Source: a virus
Lineage: Duplodnaviria > Heunggongvirae > Uroviricota > Caudoviricetes
Length of the DNA: 64,000 nt
Strand: one strand, 5' to 3'
Virus record (IMG/VR): IMGVR_UViG_3300014208_000025
Span: 180,967 to 244,966 of that record
Under the pieces are notes generated by a model. The model was given only the letters and a program-made list of their open reading frames with translations, made no database searches and was not told where the DNA came from. Both the position numbers and the translations under genes were made by a program. Each line of letters opens with the position of its first letter. The stretch's first letter is position 1. Positions 448-62,233 of this stretch are shown piece by piece.

Positions 448-1695
448 TTATGCTAAAGTTCTTGCCCACGATGACCTATATGTGAGGGATAAGGTTTGAG
501 CACTATTTTTTGATTGGGTCTGATTAAATAACATAGCAATTACGATATTTGCTGCTTGGGCGGGAGTTGATGTAGAACCATTATAACGTCCCATACCAAT
601 CGTCCGAATATCTGTTCTATTACCTTGCCCAATTGGTAATACACTTGTCTTGTCAACATAATAACTATTAGCGATGTATGATGCTTTAGTTGCTGTTCCA
701 CCTAAACCATAATTCGTTGAACGGTCAGACCCAGTAGCAAAGGTTGACAATGAAGACGAATTCGGAGATACGAAAGCCACCACATATTTTGGCCCGGCGC
801 TACTGACGAACGCCGGGTCTAACATACCGGTTGATGGGTCTGTAACACCACTGGTAGAAACAGTAGTCGTTAAAAAATTTTGTAATGATTCAACTCCATG
901 AGTATTAACCGATGGAATAACCGGCCAACCCCCAATCGATGCGGTAATAGGAACTGATGCAGTTGGTGTGAAAGTACCAACCAAATCGTAAATCAACCTA
1001 AGTTTGAATCCTATATCAACTATAATTGGAGAACCCACCAAAATTCTACTGAATACATTAGTTGCTCCGGATGATGCCCAACCCACCCCCAACTCATTAT
1101 AAGATTGGCCAACAACTTCGGTAGAAAAATCATAAGTTCTTCGCCATGTTCTAACATTCCAGTTAGTAGTGGTTTCACAATTACCTGTTCCTGTGACATA
1201 ATCGTTACTTCTCTTAACTTCGGTATCCATACCTATCTGAGCGGTTTTCCAAACTACAAACGTTTGTCCAGTTGTAAACGTATAGTTTGTAGATAACACA
1301 AGATTGAAACCATCTGTTACCGTAGATACCATAGATTCACTATTGTTAGAATATTTGATAATATCACCAACCTCAACGGCAGCAGGATAACTTCCGTTGG
1401 AGGATGTAAAATCGGTCATTCCGGTTCTAATGTTGAGAAATGCATTAGTTCCAGATTGAGTAATTTCCGATGATTGTCCACTAATACTATTTGGTCTTGT
1501 GCCGGTGCCCGCAATTCCATATAATGTTAAATCAGCTATATTTTGAGAATAAATAGCATCCATACCCTGATTCAAAATCAAGTTCTTACTCCAATCACTT
1601 TCCCACGTCACTTCATTTGTGGAATCGTTGACGACCTTTGCTTTGTAATATCCCTGAAAGGTTTGACCTAGCCCTTTGTAATGTTCGTTGTTCAT
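448..1695 (-). CDS. Putative tail/baseplate-associated structural protein (415 aa)
   Basis: S/T/G-rich beta-type protein; N-terminal Y-K-x-x-V-V...KNLILNQG motif typical of phage tail-collar/baseplate proteins; structural context. Confidence 0.6.
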   Translation of the reverse strand: MNNEHYKGLGQTFQGYYKAKVVNDSTNEVTWESDWSKNLILNQGMDAIYSQNIADLTLYGIAGTGTRPNSISGQSSEITQSGTNAFLNIRTGMTDFTSSNGSYPAAVEVGDIIKYSNNSESMVSTVTDGFNLVLSTNYTFTTGQTFVVWKTAQIGMDTEVKRSNDYVTGTGNCETTTNWNVRTWRRTYDFSTEVVGQSYNELGVGWASSGATNVFSRILVGSPIIVDIGFKLRLIYDLVGTFTPTASVPITASIGGWPVIPSVNTHGVESLQNFLTTTVSTSGVTDPSTGMLDPAFVSSAGPKYVVAFVSPNSSSLSTFATGSDRSTNYGLGGTATKASYIANSYYVDKTSVLPIGQGNRTDIRTIGMGRYNGSTSTPAQAANIVIAMLFNQTQSKNSAQTLSLTYRSSWARTLA

Positions 1696-4846: not shown

Positions 4847-5488
4847 TTATTGTGTGGTTGGAACGGTGACAGTTACTTCAATGCTCAAACTGCCGCCGGA
4901 CTCATTACCGATGATGGTTAGAGTTGTGCTGGTGGTCTTACCCAAACTGCTGTTTGGAAGGAAACGGAACTTCTTACCAACAACTACCTGAGCACTCGTT
5001 GTGTTGACATCGCCTGCGAAGGTTGGAATCGTGCTGGAAACGGAATTGATGGAATTTGATTCTTCCACTACCAACGCTCCCACGTTCTTGTTTCCAAGAA
5101 TGGCCGTGTAACCAAGGGAAAGGTTGTAGGTTGGGTTGGTGCTAGGAGAAATGATAATGTCACCGGTGTAATCTCTCGGAACGGAAACCTTGTCTTGAGC
5201 GATACTGATGACGGGAATGGATGACACACCTTGGTTCAAACTGACCAACTTGTATTTCATCACTTGAGTTTCATCCGAAACGGGTTCAAACACAGGGGTA
5301 TTTCTGATAGCAATGTCATAGAACGCACTACCATTCGGGTGATTCGGTTGATACAGAGTGTAATCTATTTCATCATCGGCCAGAGCAAATGATGTGATAT
5401 TCAAGTTACCATTTTGAGCCAGAAGTTCACGCCCCTTCTTAGTCAAAATAGCATCTACGGTGATGGTTTGGTTGTCAATGTATGCCAT
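4847..5488 (-). CDS. Conserved large-phage virion protein (213 aa)
   Basis: MAYIDNQTITVDAILTKKGRELLA...FALADDEIDY, recalled from large uncultured phages; good SD (AGGAG). Confidence 0.65.
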   Translation of the reverse strand: MAYIDNQTITVDAILTKKGRELLAQNGNLNITSFALADDEIDYTLYQPNHPNGSAFYDIAIRNTPVFEPVSDETQVMKYKLVSLNQGVSSIPVISIAQDKVSVPRDYTGDIIISPSTNPTYNLSLGYTAILGNKNVGALVVEESNSINSVSSTIPTFAGDVNTTSAQVVVGKKFRFLPNSSLGKTTSTTLTIIGNESGGSLSIEVTVTVPTTQ

Positions 5489-5545
5489 AAAATTTGTCTT
5501 CTCCTATAAGTATTCCCCTAAAAGGGTTTTTCGTATCTTTTTGTG

Positions 5546-8500
5546 TTAGTTCTTTTGAATTACGTTGTGGACAACGATACCTTCGGCCACATACAAATGG
5601 TTGCCACTAACCACAAAGTTGAAGGTTGGAGTTTCTTCCGACACAATGACGATAGTATCCAATCTTTCGGTCGTTCCATCGTATTTGAGCAGACTATCCC
5701 CAACTTTCAAGTGTTTGGTGTTGACCAACCTGTAATTATCGTTTTCAAAGATTACGACTGGATGTTCATAGGTGATTTTCAATCTATCGTTCAAAACATA
5801 GTGTTCGTGGAAACGGTTCGGTTTCAATTCCATAACGATTACGTTTAATCCATTAGCACTCTTCAAAACATCACCGACGGCGATTCTCTCGACGTTTCTA
5901 GTCGAACCATCTTCCAACATGATTTGAGTCCCAGCCAACAAACATCCTCCACCACCAACGCCTCCAGCACCAGACCCCGGAGATGGTGGGGTTACTATGC
6001 CGGGAACAGTTGGAGTTGGTGAAATTCCAGAGCCGCCGCCCGTAGAAGTGGAAGAAACTGTGCCTGCTCCACCACCCAAGCCAACAGGAATTACTGAGCC
6101 TGCTTTGTTGGATGGAATGTATTGAATGACATTACTTGAGTTTTTGACGTTAACATTACTAACGTTGAACGATTCTACAGGGAACGTGCCATCGCTAATA
6201 CCACCCGTGTTAATTGTAGTATCAATGGTCTGACGGCTCTTTACATAAATGATGTTGTAAAGATGGTTGATATACTGAGCATGTTTGTCCTTGGAAAATT
6301 GTTTGGCTTTATGAGAAAAATGGTTTCTTGGAAATCCTTTAACCAATTCAAAATATTGTGTCGCTGGTTTATTGACAACCACATATAAAGTTGGGAACGT
6401 AATTGGGTCTGCCGTTGTAAATGAAGCTGACGTATTGCTAAACACTTGGTCTGGAGTATTCTTGAAAGTGTTGGCTTGATGTTTGTAATAGGTATTCGCT
6501 CCGACCACTGCCGTTAATTGAGATGGGTCGTTTGGCACAATTGAAGTTGTAATTTCATTGTAGAAATGAACGTATTGGTTCATGAACCGTTCATCCACCA
6601 TAATATACTTGTAGAGATACACCGAAGCGGAACTAAACGGGTCAGCGCCCGGATTGTTTGACCTGATATACTCGCCTGACTTGGCATTGTATTCAAATTT
6701 TTCCCACGTCTTCAACATATAATAGAGAATTTGATGTTTTGAACCTGATGCGATGCCAGTTTCATCAATACCATTTGGAACATGGTGTTCTGATATACTT
6801 GCCAAATCATTCTGTTTCTGACGGCTTACCGACCCCCAAATCCGACTTCTACAATTGACCTCTGGTTCCCAACCCCGGGTCAAACGTTCATAATCTCCAT
6901 ACATTCCATGTTGAATGTCATCCATGTAATCAGTAACGTAACCACAAAACAAATTGGCCGGCCTAATTTTGAGTGGTTCGTTAATGTAAGACAAATCAAT
7001 CGTATCGGTGTAGCTTGGAGGCAAACTACTTGTCATAATGGCTTGGGATTGGGATGTCATACCACGCCAATCATCATTGAAATTGGCCCACAACAGATTT
7101 TCCGAGAAGATATAAATGTTGTTCACGATGCCCGGATTCTGATACGAAACTTCAACACTAGAAGTTATCTGACGGTTCTGATATTTTGGTCGTTCAAGAA
7201 TCGTTGGTTCAATGACCACGCCCGTAAAGCTATTAGCACGAGCCGGTAAAATGTTTTTGATAACTTGGAAAATAGACTTGTCAAAGTAGAACTTAAAGAT
7301 GGTCAACATTTCGTTGAAGTAGGTCTTTTTGTTTCCCGACGCATTGTATTCAACGTTCTTGCTTTTCAGGTCGGAATAGTGGTCGGCGTAAAGATTGGCT
7401 GGGTCGCCAATCAGTTCCATGATGCCCGCTTTACCAACATAGCGTATAATGTCTTTATTCTTTGAATCTTGTGGGTCAATGAAGAAACCGAGTTGATTTG
7501 ATTCTCCTGAAACAGTTTCGTTTTGACTCGTGGAACGGTCATCCGAATCAAATCTAGTTTCAATGGTGTAATCCAGCTTGCGAATTTTCTTGTTCTTGTA
7601 TTTGTTTGGACCATACTTTGACGCGTCAATGTCTTGCTGATACGTCAATTCTTCATAGTGATACGGATAAACAGAAGCGGAAGTCCATTGACAATTTGTA
7701 GCATTGTAGGAGGCTGACCAATTCTGACCAACAATGATTGGGAAGTTTCTAGCAATGATTTCCACCGAGCCAGTTGGATGATACGTCAACCAACGACCAT
7801 CAATAATTTCTACCGACGCACTCCAGAGAGTCGCATCAATTGAGCTGCTCAAATTGAGTGGGTCACTATAGTAATTTGGTATCGCATAGTAAGATGACAT
7901 GTTATCCATCCATACTGCCGACGAACCGCTTAAGTTGTAGTAAAGGGATTTTGGATAATCCAAAGACAATCTAACCCACAAATTTTTGTAAGCGATAGAC
8001 CCACTATAACCATATGAATTCAAGTCGTTTACATGCTCTTCAAAGTCGTTATCACCAATCGGAACATCCCAAATTGAAAGTTTGTCCAAAGTGCCCCGAA
8101 ACATTCCGTCGCTCAAATAGAATGTTCCGTATTGACCGAATACCATGTTGTCCAACGATTGGAGATACACACTTCCCGACGAACGGAATAGTTGTCGCCC
8201 GTTTTCGTTTCTTTGAACTACCAATTCGTATTGAGTTGGGTAGTCATTGACACTTGAAGTCGTTTCAAATTCGCTGTTAACCTCATAACGTCTCAACATG
8301 ACGCTGAAGATGTCTCCGTTGAAAATGGGTAGCTGGTCACTTGTGATAGCTACACCCGTTGACCCTGAACCCATTTGAAAAATGACTTTGCCTAAAGACT
8401 GACCCGGAACTTTATGTATGCCGAGTGACCAAGCAGCATTGTCAACCGAGTTGGTGTATGGATATGGCACCGTCGTAAACAAATTGATGTGTTGATAATT

Positions 8501-53207: not shown

Positions 53208-53393
53208 TCATTCACCTTTAATAAAGGTCTTTTTGACCACTTTAATTTTTTTGGCTATTTCTTCCACCGTATCGTTTGGATGCCAGAGTTCTTTAGAATC
53301 CAACATGGCTTGAACATACTTCTCCAAGTCTTGAATAGCCTTGTAAGTTTCCTTGGGTTTGATTCTTTCAAATTCGTCAATGTTTGTTATCAT
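53208..53393 (-). CDS. Hypothetical protein (61 aa)
   Basis: Start moved to MITNIDEF, coupled to the nadE stop. Confidence 0.5.
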   Translation of the reverse strand: MITNIDEFERIKPKETYKAIQDLEKYVQAMLDSKELWHPNDTVEEIAKKIKVVKKTFIKGE

Positions 53394-54186
53394 ATAGTTT
53401 GAAAACCGGAATTGGATTGAGTTTATGTTGACCGGCATTATGCCATTTTTGGTAACTTTTAATGACTTCCCTTTGTCTAAGGGATAATTCATCGGGGTTG
53501 TATCCAACCATACCAACTCCATCAAGAAACCACATAACCCACTCCAATTCCTCGTAACTAGCACCCAATTGTTGTTCATCTGTACGAGTGTCTTCCCACA
53601 AACCATCTGTAGGGATGGCGTTAGTTAATTCAGGCAATACACCCAACTCACGACACATGGCCCGAACTTCGGTCTTGGTCAAATCGCCAATTGGGGAAAG
53701 ATCAACACCGCCGTCTCCATATTTGGTGAAGAAACCTACTCCGTAATCTTCCACCTTGTTACCGGTTCCAATGACAAGACCTTCGTTGACGGTCGCCACT
53801 TGATACAGAGCAATCATACGTAAACGACTTTTGGTGTTCGCATAAGCAAGAGGCATATCAAAATCCTTGCTCAAATAATTGATCGTTGTTTTGAAAACCT
53901 CAAACGTAGCGGTCAAATCAATACGAACAGATTGAACGTTTTTATACAAACATTCCAATTGAAGCCAGTTTATATGAAGCATACCACGGTCGGTTTGGTC
54001 TTCCTTGGAATGACACGGCATGGTGACACAGATGGTTGGAAGGCCGGTCTTGGCACAGAGGGTGGAAACAAGAGCCGAATCAACGCCACCGGACACTCCG
54101 ATGACGAGCGCCTTACGTTTGTTGGTTTCGGCATAGTTCTTCAACCACGCCACAATCTGATCGGATATCTGTTTTATGTCTTTCAT
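53377..54186 (-). CDS. nadE: NH3-dependent NAD+ synthetase
   Basis: SGGVDSA PP-loop, NTKSRLRM, GTGNKVE..VGFFTKYGDGGVD..PIGDLTKTEV, PTDGLW...DE.QLG.SY. Confidence 0.95.
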   Translation of the reverse strand: MKDIKQISDQIVAWLKNYAETNKRKALVIGVSGGVDSALVSTLCAKTGLPTICVTMPCHSKEDQTDRGMLHINWLQLECLYKNVQSVRIDLTATFEVFKTTINYLSKDFDMPLAYANTKSRLRMIALYQVATVNEGLVIGTGNKVEDYGVGFFTKYGDGGVDLSPIGDLTKTEVRAMCRELGVLPELTNAIPTDGLWEDTRTDEQQLGASYEELEWVMWFLDGVGMVGYNPDELSLRQREVIKSYQKWHNAGQHKLNPIPVFKLYDNKH

Positions 54187-55741: not shown

Positions 55742-56158
55742 TCAACACAATTCGATGATACCAAAATTGTATTTTCCGAATTCCAAAACTATCGCATCAA
55801 GATTGGGTAACGCATCCGTCTTTGTGAGAATACGATTGATGTCAGTTACAACTTTTCGATTAACTCGCACTCCATTATTGCGAATGGCTTTACGAGCGTC
55901 ACCCTTACTACTACATAATCCAATCCATTCCAATGCGTCAATCAACGAGATGGTTTTCTCTCTGTCCATTGCGACTTGTCGATAGCCAAAAATAGAACAC
56001 ATGGTTTTTCCATCTGGCCACAATAATTCTTCCGACCATTGCGAGGGGTCGAGTTCGGAGGCCATGATACATTTGTCCACAACGGTCATTTTAGCCGAAC
56101 GCAATTCTTCCATAGCCTTAAAGAATTGGGAGAGACATGGTTTTACTTCGTCGGTCAT
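55742..56158 (-). CDS. Stand-alone TyrRS C-terminal S4-like RNA-binding domain (138 aa)
   Basis: LIDALEWIGLCSSKGDARKAIRNNGVRVNRK...LEFGKYNFGII. Confidence 0.75.
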   Translation of the reverse strand: MTDEVKPCLSQFFKAMEELRSAKMTVVDKCIMASELDPSQWSEELLWPDGKTMCSIFGYRQVAMDREKTISLIDALEWIGLCSSKGDARKAIRNNGVRVNRKVVTDINRILTKTDALPNLDAIVLEFGKYNFGIIELC

Positions 56159-57165: not shown

Positions 57166-58115
57166 TGGAGGGAATTCTACATTGAGAAGGTTCACCAAAG
57201 AAGTCAAGGATTTCACGGAAGTTCCCCGAAGGTCTATTCCTAACAGTTTTGAGAGTTGCTTCGGTTGAGACTACACCGTTGCGTATCGGCCCTCAGAGAT
57301 TATCGTAGCCTTGCGAGCTACCTTCCTCTTCATCCACATTGACCCGCCACGGGGACGGTATCATGTAGCCGATAAGTCTGCCTTTGAATGGTGGCATGTC
57401 CATTAAAACGATAACATATTCCGCGTTTATTCAAACGTCTGCCTTGCGAGCAGTAAGTACCGCGAAGTACTCCGTTCACTTCCACACGAACAACTTTCAC
57501 CTTGCGAGTTACGGTTGACTGAGTTACCTTACGGCCTCAGCATTAAGACTTTTTCAGTCATCGCTAGCACCGACTTTGCTTTTTAATGATAGTGGCTTTG
57601 ACACCACAACACATAGTTCCAATAACTATTGCTCTACTTTGAGCTATATCGAACCTAACCTGCTGGTGCGGTGCTTGCTGTTTCATAAACCTTGCGGAAT
57701 ACAAAATCCAGCACCAGCACTAATCTTTCCTTGCGGTACTCAATCCATCCTTCAAGATTCCGTCCTCAGTGTAAGCCTTGGCCGGTTTCTATCAGATTGT
57801 CACGAAGCTTTTGACTGCTAATCTCAAACCTCATTACTTAGCTTAAATCTCAACTCTCACTGTTGCGCTCGGCAGATGGTAGTGCTCGTCGGCATCGTTA
57901 GTAGTATGTTGCCGGAGTTACCCACAACATACATTTTCCATCCCAGCTTTAAGTGTAACACCCACCTTACGGCGATGTTTACAGATTTTGCTCGTTGTAT
58001 AGGCGTCCAAACCTTTCGGCTTGGTGGGCACCCGTTAGGGAGTGTCCCTTTGGCCCCATTACTGGGGTTTATCTTTATCCACCCTTGCGGGTGAAACGGA
58101 GGCCATACCCCCCGT
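57166..58115 (-). ncRNA. Giant structured ncRNA (~950 nt), GOLLD-like
   Basis: No credible ORF; dense hairpins with recurring GCAA, GAAA, GTAA and TTCG tetraloops; ends CCTCCA; inside a phage tRNA array. Family call from size and context only. Confidence 0.6.
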
Positions 58116-58519: not shown

Positions 58520-58568
58520 AATCGTAGATACATAGTATCACATTTTGAAAACCTGTCAAGTTTTTTCT

Positions 58569-58949
58569 TCAAAGAAGTTTACAGAACTGGGTAATGTGTT
58601 GAATTTGTTCACGCGTAGCGGGGCCAATTCCCAAGGCCGTCACCGTAGGTTGACCGTTAAAGAAGTTGGCACAGCCTGAATCCACCACGACATACGTTGA
58701 CAATCCGGCTGCACGAGCTTCGTTTTCGATGCGATACAATTGAGCGATGTCAGGCACTTGAAGACATATTTTTGTGCCGGGAGATTTGGGGAAATCTTGG
58801 TGATAAGATTGAAGAGCAATCTGGTCTTTACAGTTCACGAAGGCACCCAAAAAAGCGTGGCCAGCCTGTGAAGCGATTTTACCTTTATCCATGCCCAAGT
58901 CGGTTCTGACCAAGGCGTAAAGGCGGTATGTGTTATCCTATTGTTTCAT
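58569..58949 (-). CDS. pth2: Peptidyl-tRNA hydrolase type 2 with in-frame amber at codon 4
   Basis: SD AAAGGAAA, ATG AAA CAA TAG GAT AAC ACA TAC CGC CTT TAC GCC TTG GTC AGA; VRTDLGMDKGKIASQAGHA...KICL...VVDSG...TALGIGP. Confidence 0.85.
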
Positions 58950-58983
58950 ATGTTTCCTTTTTGTTTTGTTGTTGACCGTAAAT

Positions 58984-59079
58984 TGGTGGTTGGTGAATCA
59001 AGCAAGTTCATGACCTTGTGCTCTCGACTCGGTTCGTGATTGATACTCGTCTAGCCTTTCTCTTTCACTACTCCAACCA
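58984..59079 (-). ncRNA. CCA-ended hairpin RNA (96 nt)
   Basis: GGTTGG/CCAACC+ACCA terminal stem with nested stems. Confidence 0.35.
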
Positions 59080-59084
59080 TAAAT

Positions 59085-59235
59085 TGGTGTCAGTAGATGG
59101 ATTCGAACCACCATGTCAAATTTCATGTTTACATCCCACAATGGTAAACCATTGTTTTGACTTTCCACCAGCATAACGTTCGTCTGGCGTTTATCATTAC
59201 TCTCGTCTCCGTCTATCTCATTCCGGCATACTGAC
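59085..59235 (-). ncRNA. Expanded tRNA-Leu-like RNA (151 nt) with multibranch insert replacing the anticodon arm
   Basis: GTCAGTA/TACTGAC+ACCA (same acceptor as Leu-CAA 37190), T-arm GGTGG-TTCGAAT-CCATC; internal GCCAG/CTGGT, GTCAAA/TTTGAC, ACAATGG/CCATTGT. Confidence 0.65.
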
Positions 59236-59240
59236 GTAAT

Positions 59241-59426
59241 TGGTGCCTCTGGCAGGACTCGAACCTGCGACCTACCGTTTTTTAAGGATGGGTGCTCTGC
59301 CGTTTTACCGACTGACGAATAGAATGAGCATACCCTTTCCTCTCCACACTCACTTTCCTGCAGGCTATGAATGTCTTGAGAATACTCTGTCTCACTCTTC
59401 CTCGTCACCAACTGAGCTACCGAGGC
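59241..59426 (-). tRNA. tRNA (UAA loop, class I body) with ~100-nt structured D-loop insertion
   Basis: GCTC-AGTTGG-[TGACGA...TCGTCA]-GTCGGTAAAACGGCA-GAGC; loop CTTAAAA on an imperfect stem; intact T-arm; ACCA. Confidence 0.6.
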
Positions 59427-59431
59427 GAAAT

Positions 59432-59486
59432 TGGTGGTCGCATCTGGACTTGAACCAAAGGAAACAACTGAATTGTTATTGCGACC
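59432..59486 (-). ncRNA. 55-nt mini-tRNA copy 1
   Basis: GGTCGCA-AT-AACAA ttcag TTGTT-TCC-TTTGG ttcaagt CCAGA-TGCGACC-ACCA. Confidence 0.75.
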
Positions 59487-59488
59487 GT

Positions 59489-59543
59489 TGGTGGTTGGCG
59501 CAGGACTTGAACCTGCGGAACATGCTAAACGTGTATGCCAACC
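59489..59543 (-). ncRNA. 55-nt mini-tRNA copy 2
   Basis: GGTTGGC-AT-ACACG tttag CATGT-TCC-GCAGG ttcaagt CCTGC-GCCAACC-ACCA. Confidence 0.75.
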
Positions 59544-59572: not shown

Positions 59573-59647
59573 TGGCGCCCCATGCGGGATTCGAACCCGC
59601 ACAAAATTCTTTTAGAGAGAACTGCACTGGCCGTTGTGCTAATGAGG
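59573..59647 (-). tRNA. Candidate amber suppressor tRNA (CUA)
   Basis: Loop CT-CTA-AA at canonical positions 32-38; stem pairs well only when shifted by one nt (8-nt loop); intact D/T arms, G73, CCA. Confidence 0.55.
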
Positions 59648-59730
59648 CATTGGAAGAAAGAATGATTGCGTCAGTGATTTTGTCACCGTTGCCTGAAACC
59701 TATGTAAAGTTGTTCTTCATTACGCCAATA

Positions 59731-59758
59731 ACTATATCAGACCATTTGAAAATGTCAA
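59731..59758 (-). promoter_or_regulatory. Sigma70-type promoter heading the atypical-tRNA/pth2 operon
   Basis: TTGACA-N16-TATAGT. Confidence 0.7.
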
Positions 59759-61402: not shown

Positions 61403-62233
61403 TCATATTTGAAATCCTTTATAGGCATCCAAATCATTTCCAATCACACCGTAAAACTCATTTATTAACTCCACCATTTCCGGAGTAATCCTCTCTTTCA
61501 TCCCAACAATCATGGTTGGAGGAATTGACTTGACACCGTAGAAGGCTTCAGCAATCGACCCAGCAATTGCGGCAATTGTATCAGTATCGCCCTTGGTATA
61601 GACCGCATTACGGATGGCCGATTCATAATCCGTTGACTCCATGAAACAAGTCAATGCCTGTGGAGCCGAAAGGTTACAACGAATGTTTGGCTTTGGATGT
61701 TGACGCCATTGTTCAACGGTTAAATCCAACATGTGACCATATTGTTCTTCCACGTAGGCTTGAATTTGAAGTTTGGTGTTTCCATTGAGGGCCATATGAA
61801 TAGCCGACGTAATTGATAACACTCCACGTCTTGATTCAGGAGAACAATGTGTCATCTTAATACTGTCGTTGGCCATCAATTCAACCATTCTTATATTTGG
61901 ATAAAATAACGCAATCGGACTACAACGCATCATAGCCCCATTGGCATAACTGTTATTAACAGTAATATCCGAACAATTGACCCATTCTTGAAATCCGCTG
62001 CCATAACCACGTCCCGGATACTTCAAGGCCCATTCCTTGTAACGAATATCAAATCGACATTCTCGGTTAACGGGGTGTAACAACGCATCTGCGGTCGCAC
62101 AAGTTAAAACGGTGTCATCGGTAAAACGTGACCACTGTTTTGCGAAGAGTGGAAAATTTCGGTCATCCACCCAATTCAAACGACTGCCTTCATAAGGCGA
62201 GCCAACTATATCACCGATAATAGCACCGACCAT
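61403..62233 (-). CDS. ADP-ribosylglycohydrolase (ARH/DraG family)
   Basis: GAIIGDIVGSPYE, FTDDT, NGAMMR, ITH, GDTDTIAAIAGSIAEA. Confidence 0.92.
   Translation of the reverse strand: MVGAIIGDIVGSPYEGSRLNWVDDRNFPLFAKQWSRFTDDTVLTCATADALLHPVNRECRFDIRYKEWALKYPGRGYGSGFQEWVNCSDITVNNSYANGAMMRCSPIALFYPNIRMVELMANDSIKMTHCSPESRRGVLSITSAIHMALNGNTKLQIQAYVEEQYGHMLDLTVEQWRQHPKPNIRCNLSAPQALTCFMESTDYESAIRNAVYTKGDTDTIAAIAGSIAEAFYGVKSIPPTMIVGMKERITPEMVELINEFYGVIGNDLDAYKGFQI

Follow-up and report, generated by a model that had tools for sequence, protein, structure and literature searches.

What is the role of two adjacent 55-nt genes that lie in the tRNA array of a large phage and resemble one half of a tRNA? 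The locus was studied in a window of 64,000 nt, the whole stretch of DNA analysed here, which corresponds to bases 180967-244966 of a 279-kb virus record and contains tail and baseplate genes together with about 38 genes for tRNAs, almost all of them encoded by the minus strand. CCA is encoded in most of these tRNAs, and the same record also holds a GOLLD RNA and a tmRNA. The two genes, hereafter mini-tRNAs, are both on the minus strand and are separated by 2 nt (AC); copy B (59489..59543) is the upstream member and copy A occupies 59432..59486. Both present the same order of elements: a 7-bp acceptor stem, the linker AU, a 5-bp hairpin with a UUYAG pentaloop, the linker UCC, a 5-bp T-stem with the loop UUCAAGU, and ACCA, that is, A73 followed by CCA. 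Copy B, read from 59543 to 59489, pairs GGUUGGC with GCCAACC in the acceptor, ACACG with CAUGU around the hairpin loop UUUAG, and GCAGG with CCUGC in the T-stem, while copy A, read from 59486 to 59432, uses GGUCGCA and UGCGACC, AACAA and UUGUU around UUCAG, and UUUGG and CCAGA. Double compensatory changes distinguish the two copies at 8 pairs. The original prediction of two neighbouring genes of exactly 55 nt with an identical layout holds on the minus-strand sequence and by RNAfold, which recovered the three helices (z = -3.5, -3.3 and -3.9 against dinucleotide shuffles). The 5-bp hairpin that it drew for both genes is complete in copy A, but in copy B one C.A mismatch leaves four of the five pairs; one pair of the copy A T-stem is a U.G wobble. 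It had not recorded the minus strand, the strong conservation of the UUYAG loop and the linkers, or the linkage to a suppressor tRNA, tRNA(CUA), and an amber-gated pth2 gene, all of which are described below.

Standard annotation does not register the mini-tRNAs. ARAGORN made no tRNA call at either gene, and Rfam, run on the region at E-values up to 10, matched them neither with the tRNA model (RF00005) nor with any other family. A scan of the whole genome for an acceptor stem, a T-arm and NCCA recovered all the ordinary tRNAs; the perfect-stem 55-nt elements that it returned were copies A and B, plus one inside a normal tRNA. According to the same kind of top-half scan, the acceptor stems of the mini-tRNAs match no tRNA of this phage. 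Related loci were collected using the neighbouring ADP-ribosylglycohydrolase as an anchor, which gave 9 viral and 30 metagenomic loci with 58-82% protein identity, and members were then found by a structural scan and by covariance model R1, built from four sequences. Copies B and A scored 76.9 bits (E = 7e-18) and 76.4 bits (E = 9e-18) by covariance model. The search for further homologs that had been proposed was successful, since the four-sequence model found independent ones in other phages at E-values of about 1e-17; its matches range from 1e-12 to 1e-18 in 9 lineages whose ADP-ribosylglycohydrolases are only 58-82% identical. The family comprises 14 distinct members, which are spread over 9 lineages of related jumbo phages, all uncultured: 12 distinct members of 55-57 nt (type I) and two relatives of 52-53 nt, all included in the alignment. 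In this minority subtype, present in a few relatives, a 5-nt loop replaces the T-loop, so the elbow is not universally kept.

The distribution of the family was examined in several collections. Model R2, applied to four genomes of 215-365 kb, placed mini-tRNAs at one locus per genome and nowhere else. A 19-letter pattern gave five matches in viral contigs, all of them structured members of the same clade and one of them in a new 250-kb contig; the strict pattern AU...UUYAG...UCC...UUCRANU...ACCA gave zero matches in viral contigs. When 185,579 bacterial and archaeal species were scanned, one genome each, the 19-letter pattern matched 43 times, approximately the number expected by chance, and none of the 43 passed the structure model. 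No match to the region was obtained by blastn against 50,697 phage records, tblastn with the glycohydrolase and a baseplate protein returned just distant cultured relatives with at most 40% identity (Microcystis phage Mel-JY01 and Flavobacterium phages), and a Pth2 query for related loci gave no confirmed locus. More distant members may exist, because the collections were scanned by exact patterns. The member contigs are metagenomic, several being named for lake or sediment samples, and all members belong to a single clade of phages, which means that statistics of co-occurrence lack independence. Judged from its sequences, the mini-tRNA family is real, selected and so far phage-only. In the literature, including the GOLLD cryo-EM work and the studies of irregular tRNAs by Mukai et al. 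2016/17, we found no description of such mini-tRNAs.

That the structure is under selection and not in decay, as had been proposed from the two copies, is borne out by the 14-sequence alignment. Pairing was found in 99.6% of the 238 stem cells, and 15 of the 17 pairs show compensatory changes on both sides. When the partners were slid by 1-3 columns as a control, pairing dropped to 31-45%; no column shuffle attained four of the five measures and 1 in 500 attained the fifth. Sequence identity was 86% in unpaired columns versus 51% in paired columns, and A8, U9, the U-U-Y-A-G loop, U-C-U and UUCAAGU are nearly invariant, so that the hairpin is flanked by the conserved linkers AU and UCU/UCC. G1-C72 and G53-C61 are invariant across the 14 sequences, and the 3:70 pair is U-A in 11 of them and G-C in the other 3, never G.U. 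Two positions vary between orthologs. The ortholog of copy B in lineage L018 (5337-5391) has an identical acceptor but the loop UUCAG and G73, and the ortholog of copy A in L038 (5586-5640) has an identical hairpin stem but the loop UUUAG; among the 12 type-I members the discriminator N73 is A in 8 and G in 4.

These features define which part of a tRNA has been kept. In agreement with the original prediction, the top half is canonical, with a 7-bp acceptor, a 5-bp T-stem with G53-C61, a T-loop of the UUCRANY type and an encoded N73-CCA. An anticodon arm with a 7-nt loop is missing; there is a single internal hairpin with a 5-nt loop, and that loop, UUYAG, carries neither the G18G19 of a D-arm nor anything recognised by tRNA detectors. 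The pair that closes the loop covaries (GC in 8 sequences, AU in 5 and CG in 1), so the loop is a true 5-nt pentaloop and not a 7-nt anticodon loop, which upholds the earlier claim that a decoding arm is missing. The decoding centre and the peptidyl-transferase centre of the ribosome are about 75 Angstrom apart, a distance that five base pairs cannot span. We infer that the mini-tRNAs cannot reach the decoding centre and are non-decoding, since a true pentaloop on a single 5-bp helix is unable to bridge both centres. A role in modulating the stringent response, one of those first suggested, is unlikely: RelA senses deacylated tRNA paired to an A-site codon, and a mini-tRNA cannot form this pairing. 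Overall, we are close to certain that the 14 sequences form a functional family of non-decoding RNAs.

The genomic context of the mini-tRNAs is that of a predicted transcription unit with one promoter. In the window, a sigma70-like promoter (TTGACA-16-TGnTATAGT; 11 of 12 consensus matches) is located at 59731..59758 (-), some 110 nt ahead of the gene that opens the unit, an amber-suppressor tRNA at 59573..59648 (-) with anticodon CUA, anticodon loop CUCUAAA and encoded CCA (called by ARAGORN; 62.5 bits with the Rfam tRNA model). The two mini-tRNAs follow, and after them come three larger RNAs read as top-half RNAs: a tRNA-like gene with a D-loop insertion of about 100 nt (59241..59426 (-); sequence and top-half scan, homologs in L006, L018 and L038), a 151-nt CCA-ended RNA with a tRNA top half (59085..59235 (-); GUCAGUA/UACUGAC, A73; top-half scan and sequence) and, identified from its sequence, a 95-nt CCA-ended RNA between the latter and pth2 (58984..59078 (-)) that has a GGUUGG/CCAACC closing stem, no canonical T-loop, a weak fold (z = -1.6) and a longer counterpart in L038. 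The last gene is pth2 (58569..58949 (-); Pfam PTH2, E = 1.4e-23), and the next sigma70-like promoter, at 58532..58559 (-), starts the following unit, of ordinary tRNAs. The spacing between neighbouring genes, 2-5 nt, resembles that of tRNA operons, and CCA is part of the gene sequence. Across the lineages the order is promoter, tRNA(CUA), one to three mini-tRNAs, then further tRNA-like RNAs of non-standard form and, in three of the lineages, pth2. The promoter lies at -108 to -119 from the suppressor tRNA in 8 of 10 related lineages, and the next promoter comes after the last odd RNA or, in the window, after pth2. Mini-tRNAs are found directly behind tRNA(CUA) in 9 of the 9 lineages that have them, the gap being 4-29 nt or else occupied by an inserted HNH gene or a further odd tRNA-like gene; in two related lineages the suppressor and the mini-tRNAs are both missing.

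An early in-frame TAG interrupts pth2 in three lineages: at codon 4 in the window (ATG AAA CAA TAG; TAG at 58940..58938), at codon 4 in L038 (gene at 6150-6530) and at codon 6 in L011 (114-470 (-)). As the unit is headed by tRNA(CUA), synthesis of Pth2 appears to depend on the suppressor tRNA that leads the same predicted transcript. These are the only 3 of the 9 lineages in which pth2 lies beside the mini-tRNAs, and a pth2 with an early UAG is absent from the mini-bearing stretches examined in L002, L006, L007 and L018. Genomes G001 and G002 contain mini-tRNAs, and their only Pth2-like gene is ungated and far off. This corresponds to a second, divergent Pth2-like gene of 154-158 aa without an early TAG, found in L047 (G002:C1:144219-144461) and L048 (G001:C1:79727-79942). 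In the leader of pth2 in the window, AUUUAC is followed by GGUCAAC (58970-58976 (-)), which is the 5′ acceptor strand of the 53-nt relative in L006; this stretch could be a remnant, or a processing site common to both. The idea that pth2 is nested inside a split mini-tRNA was discarded, as no 3′ strand complementary to GGUCAAC is found downstream of pth2.

Several other unusual RNAs and genes surround the unit. The tRNA-like gene with the D-loop insertion is present in four lineages (window 59241-59426 (-), L006 7379-7563, L018 5477-5652 and L038 5646-5833); its anticodon loop looks oversized, reading CCUCAAAAA in L038 and CCUUAAAAA in the window, where two positions of the anticodon stem are also unpaired. 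Anticodon loops of 8 nt (CCUUAAAA and CCUAAAAA) occur in tRNAs of the suppressor-led unit in L018 (5394-5472 and 5666-5742) and L019 (9391-9469), and for the first such tRNA in both lineages ARAGORN gives the four-base anticodon 'ttaa'. Lineage L038 has one mini-tRNA against two in the window, and by eye a homing endonuclease-like gene of the HNH type lies on the opposite strand between its suppressor tRNA and mini-tRNA (5190-5560). More CCA-ended RNAs were found in L007 (11847-11917, 71 nt) and L011 (879-1001 (-), about 120 nt; 630-816 (-), about 185 nt), which have in common with the mini-tRNAs an acceptor such as GGUCAAG/CUUGACC or similar, their interiors being larger and unrelated. The tRNA array of the window also contains genes for an NAD synthase and for a stand-alone C-terminal S4 domain of TyrRS (53377-54186 (-) and 55742-56158 (-)), and the ADP-ribosylglycohydrolase gene lies just upstream of the suppressor-led unit (61403-62233 (-)). 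A nucleotidyltransferase of the CCA-adding type is encoded elsewhere in the phage genome (G000:C1:132565-132987).

Two large RNAs of the clade were also compared with the mini-tRNAs. GOLLD RNA was detected by Rfam (155-173 bits) in the window (57262-57719 (-)) and in L007, L018, L019 and L038, approximately 1-2 kb downstream of the mini-tRNAs and, in L007, with a tRNA embedded within it; no GOLLD match was obtained in L002, L004 and L009. The co-occurrence of GOLLD and mini-tRNAs (4 of the 5 lineages with enough flank, with GOLLD absent from L002 and from two lineages without mini-tRNAs) is not separable from shared ancestry, and we did not retain it as a functional link. The clade has its own tmRNA, located outside the window at G000:C1:246390-246804 (-) and also found across L001-L007, L019 and L038; this RNA has the G3.U70 pair, and its tag ends in ...EFAMA or ...VAVA(A). 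An acceptor link between mini-tRNAs and tmRNA was also set aside: the strand GGGCGUG is common to one L018 mini-tRNA and several phage tmRNAs, but the mini-tRNA has G3-C70 and the identity is probably due to chance.

The explanation that we favour is that the two genes belong to a conserved, phage-specific family of non-decoding mimics of the tRNA top half, and we give the whole of it a probability of about 0.5. Each RNA is a three-way junction in which a 7-bp acceptor is stacked on a 5-bp T-arm (G53-C61, UUCAAGU), with an encoded N73-CCA and a hairpin at the position of the D-arm. Following established tRNA biology, the mini-tRNAs would be cut out in the same way as the neighbouring tRNAs, by RNase P and 3′ trimming, and the excised molecules would be stable and present a free CCA end. 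The mini-tRNAs have junction strands of 0, 2 and 3 nt and two 5-bp hairpins. The Lescoute-Westhof rules assign three-way junctions with such strands to the class whose third helix leans toward the T-arm, so the small hairpin may lean that way with the two loops side by side, and the hairpin loop and the T-loop would probably form an elbow-like body under a standard acceptor end. The RNAs would then act by mimicking the acceptor/T-arm half of tRNA, the least certain step, and would occupy a protein that reads this half or serve as its private substrate. Candidate partners include a host defence enzyme directed at the acceptor end, or enzymes attacking tRNA 3′ ends or aminoacyl groups, as well as the Pth2 and the CCA-adding-type enzyme of the phage itself. 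The mini-tRNAs would act in the phase of infection in which the suppressor tRNA and Pth2 are made.

The mimic or bait mechanism, taken specifically, is tentative and we would place it somewhat below even odds. A decoy that titrates an enzyme stoichiometrically is inefficient unless binding is tight, pth2 adjoins the mini-tRNAs in just 3 of 9 lineages, inheritance as a block within one clade could by itself account for the co-occurrence with tRNA(CUA), and the 52-53-nt subtype has a 5-nt loop instead of the T-loop. It is conceivable, and to our mind rather unlikely, that mini-tRNAs, suppressor tRNA and amber-gated Pth2 together constitute an undescribed system for the manipulation of translation or for counter-defence, in which the top halves would be substrates or regulators of Pth2, or baits for acceptor-end enzymes. 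If this is true, phages would have evolved several unrelated mimic architectures for the same job.

The strict association with tRNA(CUA), predicted to be on the same transcript, could alternatively reflect base pairing between loops, the mini-tRNA being a codon mimic that kisses the anticodon loop of the suppressor and shields, buffers or chaperones it. The loop UUUAG displays the codon UAG and is fully complementary to positions 34-38 (CUAAA) of tRNA(CUA), whose loop is CUCUAAA; UUCAG has a perfect 5-nt complement in the CUCUGAA loop of the phage tRNA-Gln(CUG); and UUYA conforms to YUNR, the U-turn motif found in the recognition loops of antisense RNAs. However, orthologs switch between UUUAG and UUCAG (copy B versus L018a, and copy A versus the L038 member), L002 and L030 have only UUCAG and L007 only UUUUG, which mismatch CUAAA, and 24 of the 38 phage tRNA loops end in AA, so that complementarity to 'UU + any codon' comes cheaply. 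We consider this pairing improbable. The same pentaloop has been read as a set of triplets in three ways: as the stop anticodons UUA/UCA, as the codons UAG/CAG facing tRNA(CUA) and tRNA-Gln, and as the start, UUUAG(GG), of the loop of tRNA-Leu(UAG/CAG). These readings are mutually exclusive and each fits some members only, and we take them as over-reading of five letters; the switch of the third loop base within orthologs argues against any codon- or anticodon-specific reading.

With acceptor stem, N73 and encoded CCA intact, the mini-tRNAs could instead be dedicated aminoacyl carriers outside the ribosome, charged by a host or phage synthetase and handing the amino acid to a transferase or another acceptor; in a variant of this idea they would be puromycin-like acceptors recycled by Pth2, and pth2 is indeed within the unit in three lineages. 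Minihelices are known substrates of several synthetases. The identity elements speak against such a role: the discriminator is divided between A (8/12) and G (4/12) in type I and differs between orthologs, which counts against a single, fixed synthetase identity, pair 3:70 is formed by U-A or G-C and not by G.U, there is no G-1 with C73, and the acceptors are unlike those of any tRNA of the same phage. Moreover, the unit contains no gene for a synthetase or transferase, and no SmpB gene was found in the 279-kb record. The role of aminoacyl donor that had first been suggested appears weakened by the A/G switch in orthologs and the absent acceptor identity set, and we see little chance that the mini-tRNAs are carriers of this kind.

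About as doubtful is a role in processing, in which the mini-tRNAs would punctuate the polycistronic transcript like t-elements, as signals for RNase P and 3′-end enzymes that define the ends of the neighbouring RNAs and of the pth2 mRNA. Their position inside a polycistronic unit with spacers of 2-29 nt would suit this function, and punctuation by tRNA-like elements is established in mitochondria and for MALAT1/mascRNA. Nevertheless, neighbours that already resemble tRNAs do not need an additional signal, the mini-tRNAs are retained in lineages without a protein gene in the unit, and the conservation of loop, linkers and equal stem lengths far exceeds the needs of a cleavage signal.

Far less probable is that the mini-tRNAs are decoding tRNAs without a D-arm. 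Beside tRNA(CUA), the loops read U-UUA-G and U-UCA-G, so that U33-NNN-R37 would give the anticodons UUA and UCA and all three stops would be suppressed, and one member (L006 7631-7687), the single relative whose gene does not encode CCA, can be drawn with a 5-bp stem and a 7-nt loop, AUUCAGU. The 7-nt loop, U33 and open positions 32-38 of a suppressor are at variance with the covariation of the very pair that would need to open, and five base pairs are too short for the distance between the ribosomal centres. In addition, orthologs differ in the triplet, which in L007 is UUU, and anticodons ending in A nearly always have A37, where the mini-tRNAs have G. Nor does the genome favour such suppression, because TAA and TGA are its main stops, ending 217 and 194 of the 456 long ORFs against 45 for TAG, and translation through TAA or TGA does not show the behaviour of recoded stops. 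A recoding of stop codons was rejected: the long ORFs are barely lengthened when TAG is read through, the standard genetic code fits, and TAG is merely a rare stop. The least probable reading, decaying tRNA pseudogenes or functionless fragments of tRNA genes, can appeal to the pseudogenes that phage tRNA arrays do contain and to the silence of ARAGORN and Rfam, but it is contradicted by stems that covary, by nearly invariant loops and linkers, and by a geometry that is the same in 9 lineages and in paralogs whose mostly different stems still pair.

Comparison with known RNAs placed the top-half mimics near several classes, and none of the closest known objects has the mini-tRNA architecture. 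Canonical tRNAs (RF00005) have in common with them the 7-bp acceptor, the 5-bp T-stem with G53-C61, UUCAAGU, a discriminator followed by CCA, and an operon-like spacing, but they measure 74-90 nt versus 55 nt, and the mini-tRNAs lack the anticodon arm and a canonical D-arm. The tRNA-like domain of tmRNA is likewise a natural RNA with acceptor and T arms, no anticodon arm and no decoding; the mini-tRNAs, in contrast, are separate small genes and have neither G3.U70, nor the mRNA-like domain and tag frame, which are absent from their 55 nt, nor the D-loop of tmRNA, which works with SmpB. Synthetic minihelices of the Schimmel type and model substrates of RNase P present the same 12-bp coaxial acceptor/T helix with NCCA. 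Such a minihelix suffices for RNase P, the CCA-adding enzyme, EF-Tu (if charged) and some synthetases. Unlike them, the mini-tRNAs are natural conserved genes and have a third helix with a conserved loop and linkers. Plant mitochondrial t-elements and the MALAT1 mascRNA are also small, tRNA-shaped and non-decoding, and are excised by tRNA-processing enzymes; they are, however, eukaryotic or organellar, have a cloverleaf-like outline, and their main known role is to define the ends of flanking transcripts. The truncated mitochondrial tRNAs (D-armless tRNA-Ser and the armless tRNAs of nematodes) show a similar extreme size reduction (42-60 nt), but their 7-nt anticodon loop is retained and used for decoding on specialised ribosomes, whereas the mini-tRNAs have lost the anticodon arm. 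Repeats of type III antitoxins (ToxI-like), which are tandem and nearly identical in sequence, do not fit either, as the mini-tRNA copies share geometry, loops and linkers while their stems differ at most positions.

Codon usage, or the need to replace tRNAs that host defences have cleaved, is the usual explanation for tRNA genes in large phages. The existence of a conserved family in which only the non-decoding half of the tRNA is kept would mean that the tRNA shape, too, serves phages as a tool. These genes are missed completely by standard tRNA and Rfam annotation. The unit of suppressor tRNA and mini-tRNAs, in some lineages with pth2, spans about 1 kb and would offer a compact system for asking what phage suppressor tRNAs and Pth2 do, and a 55-nt three-way junction with strong covariation may be attractive for structural study and for use as a scaffold.
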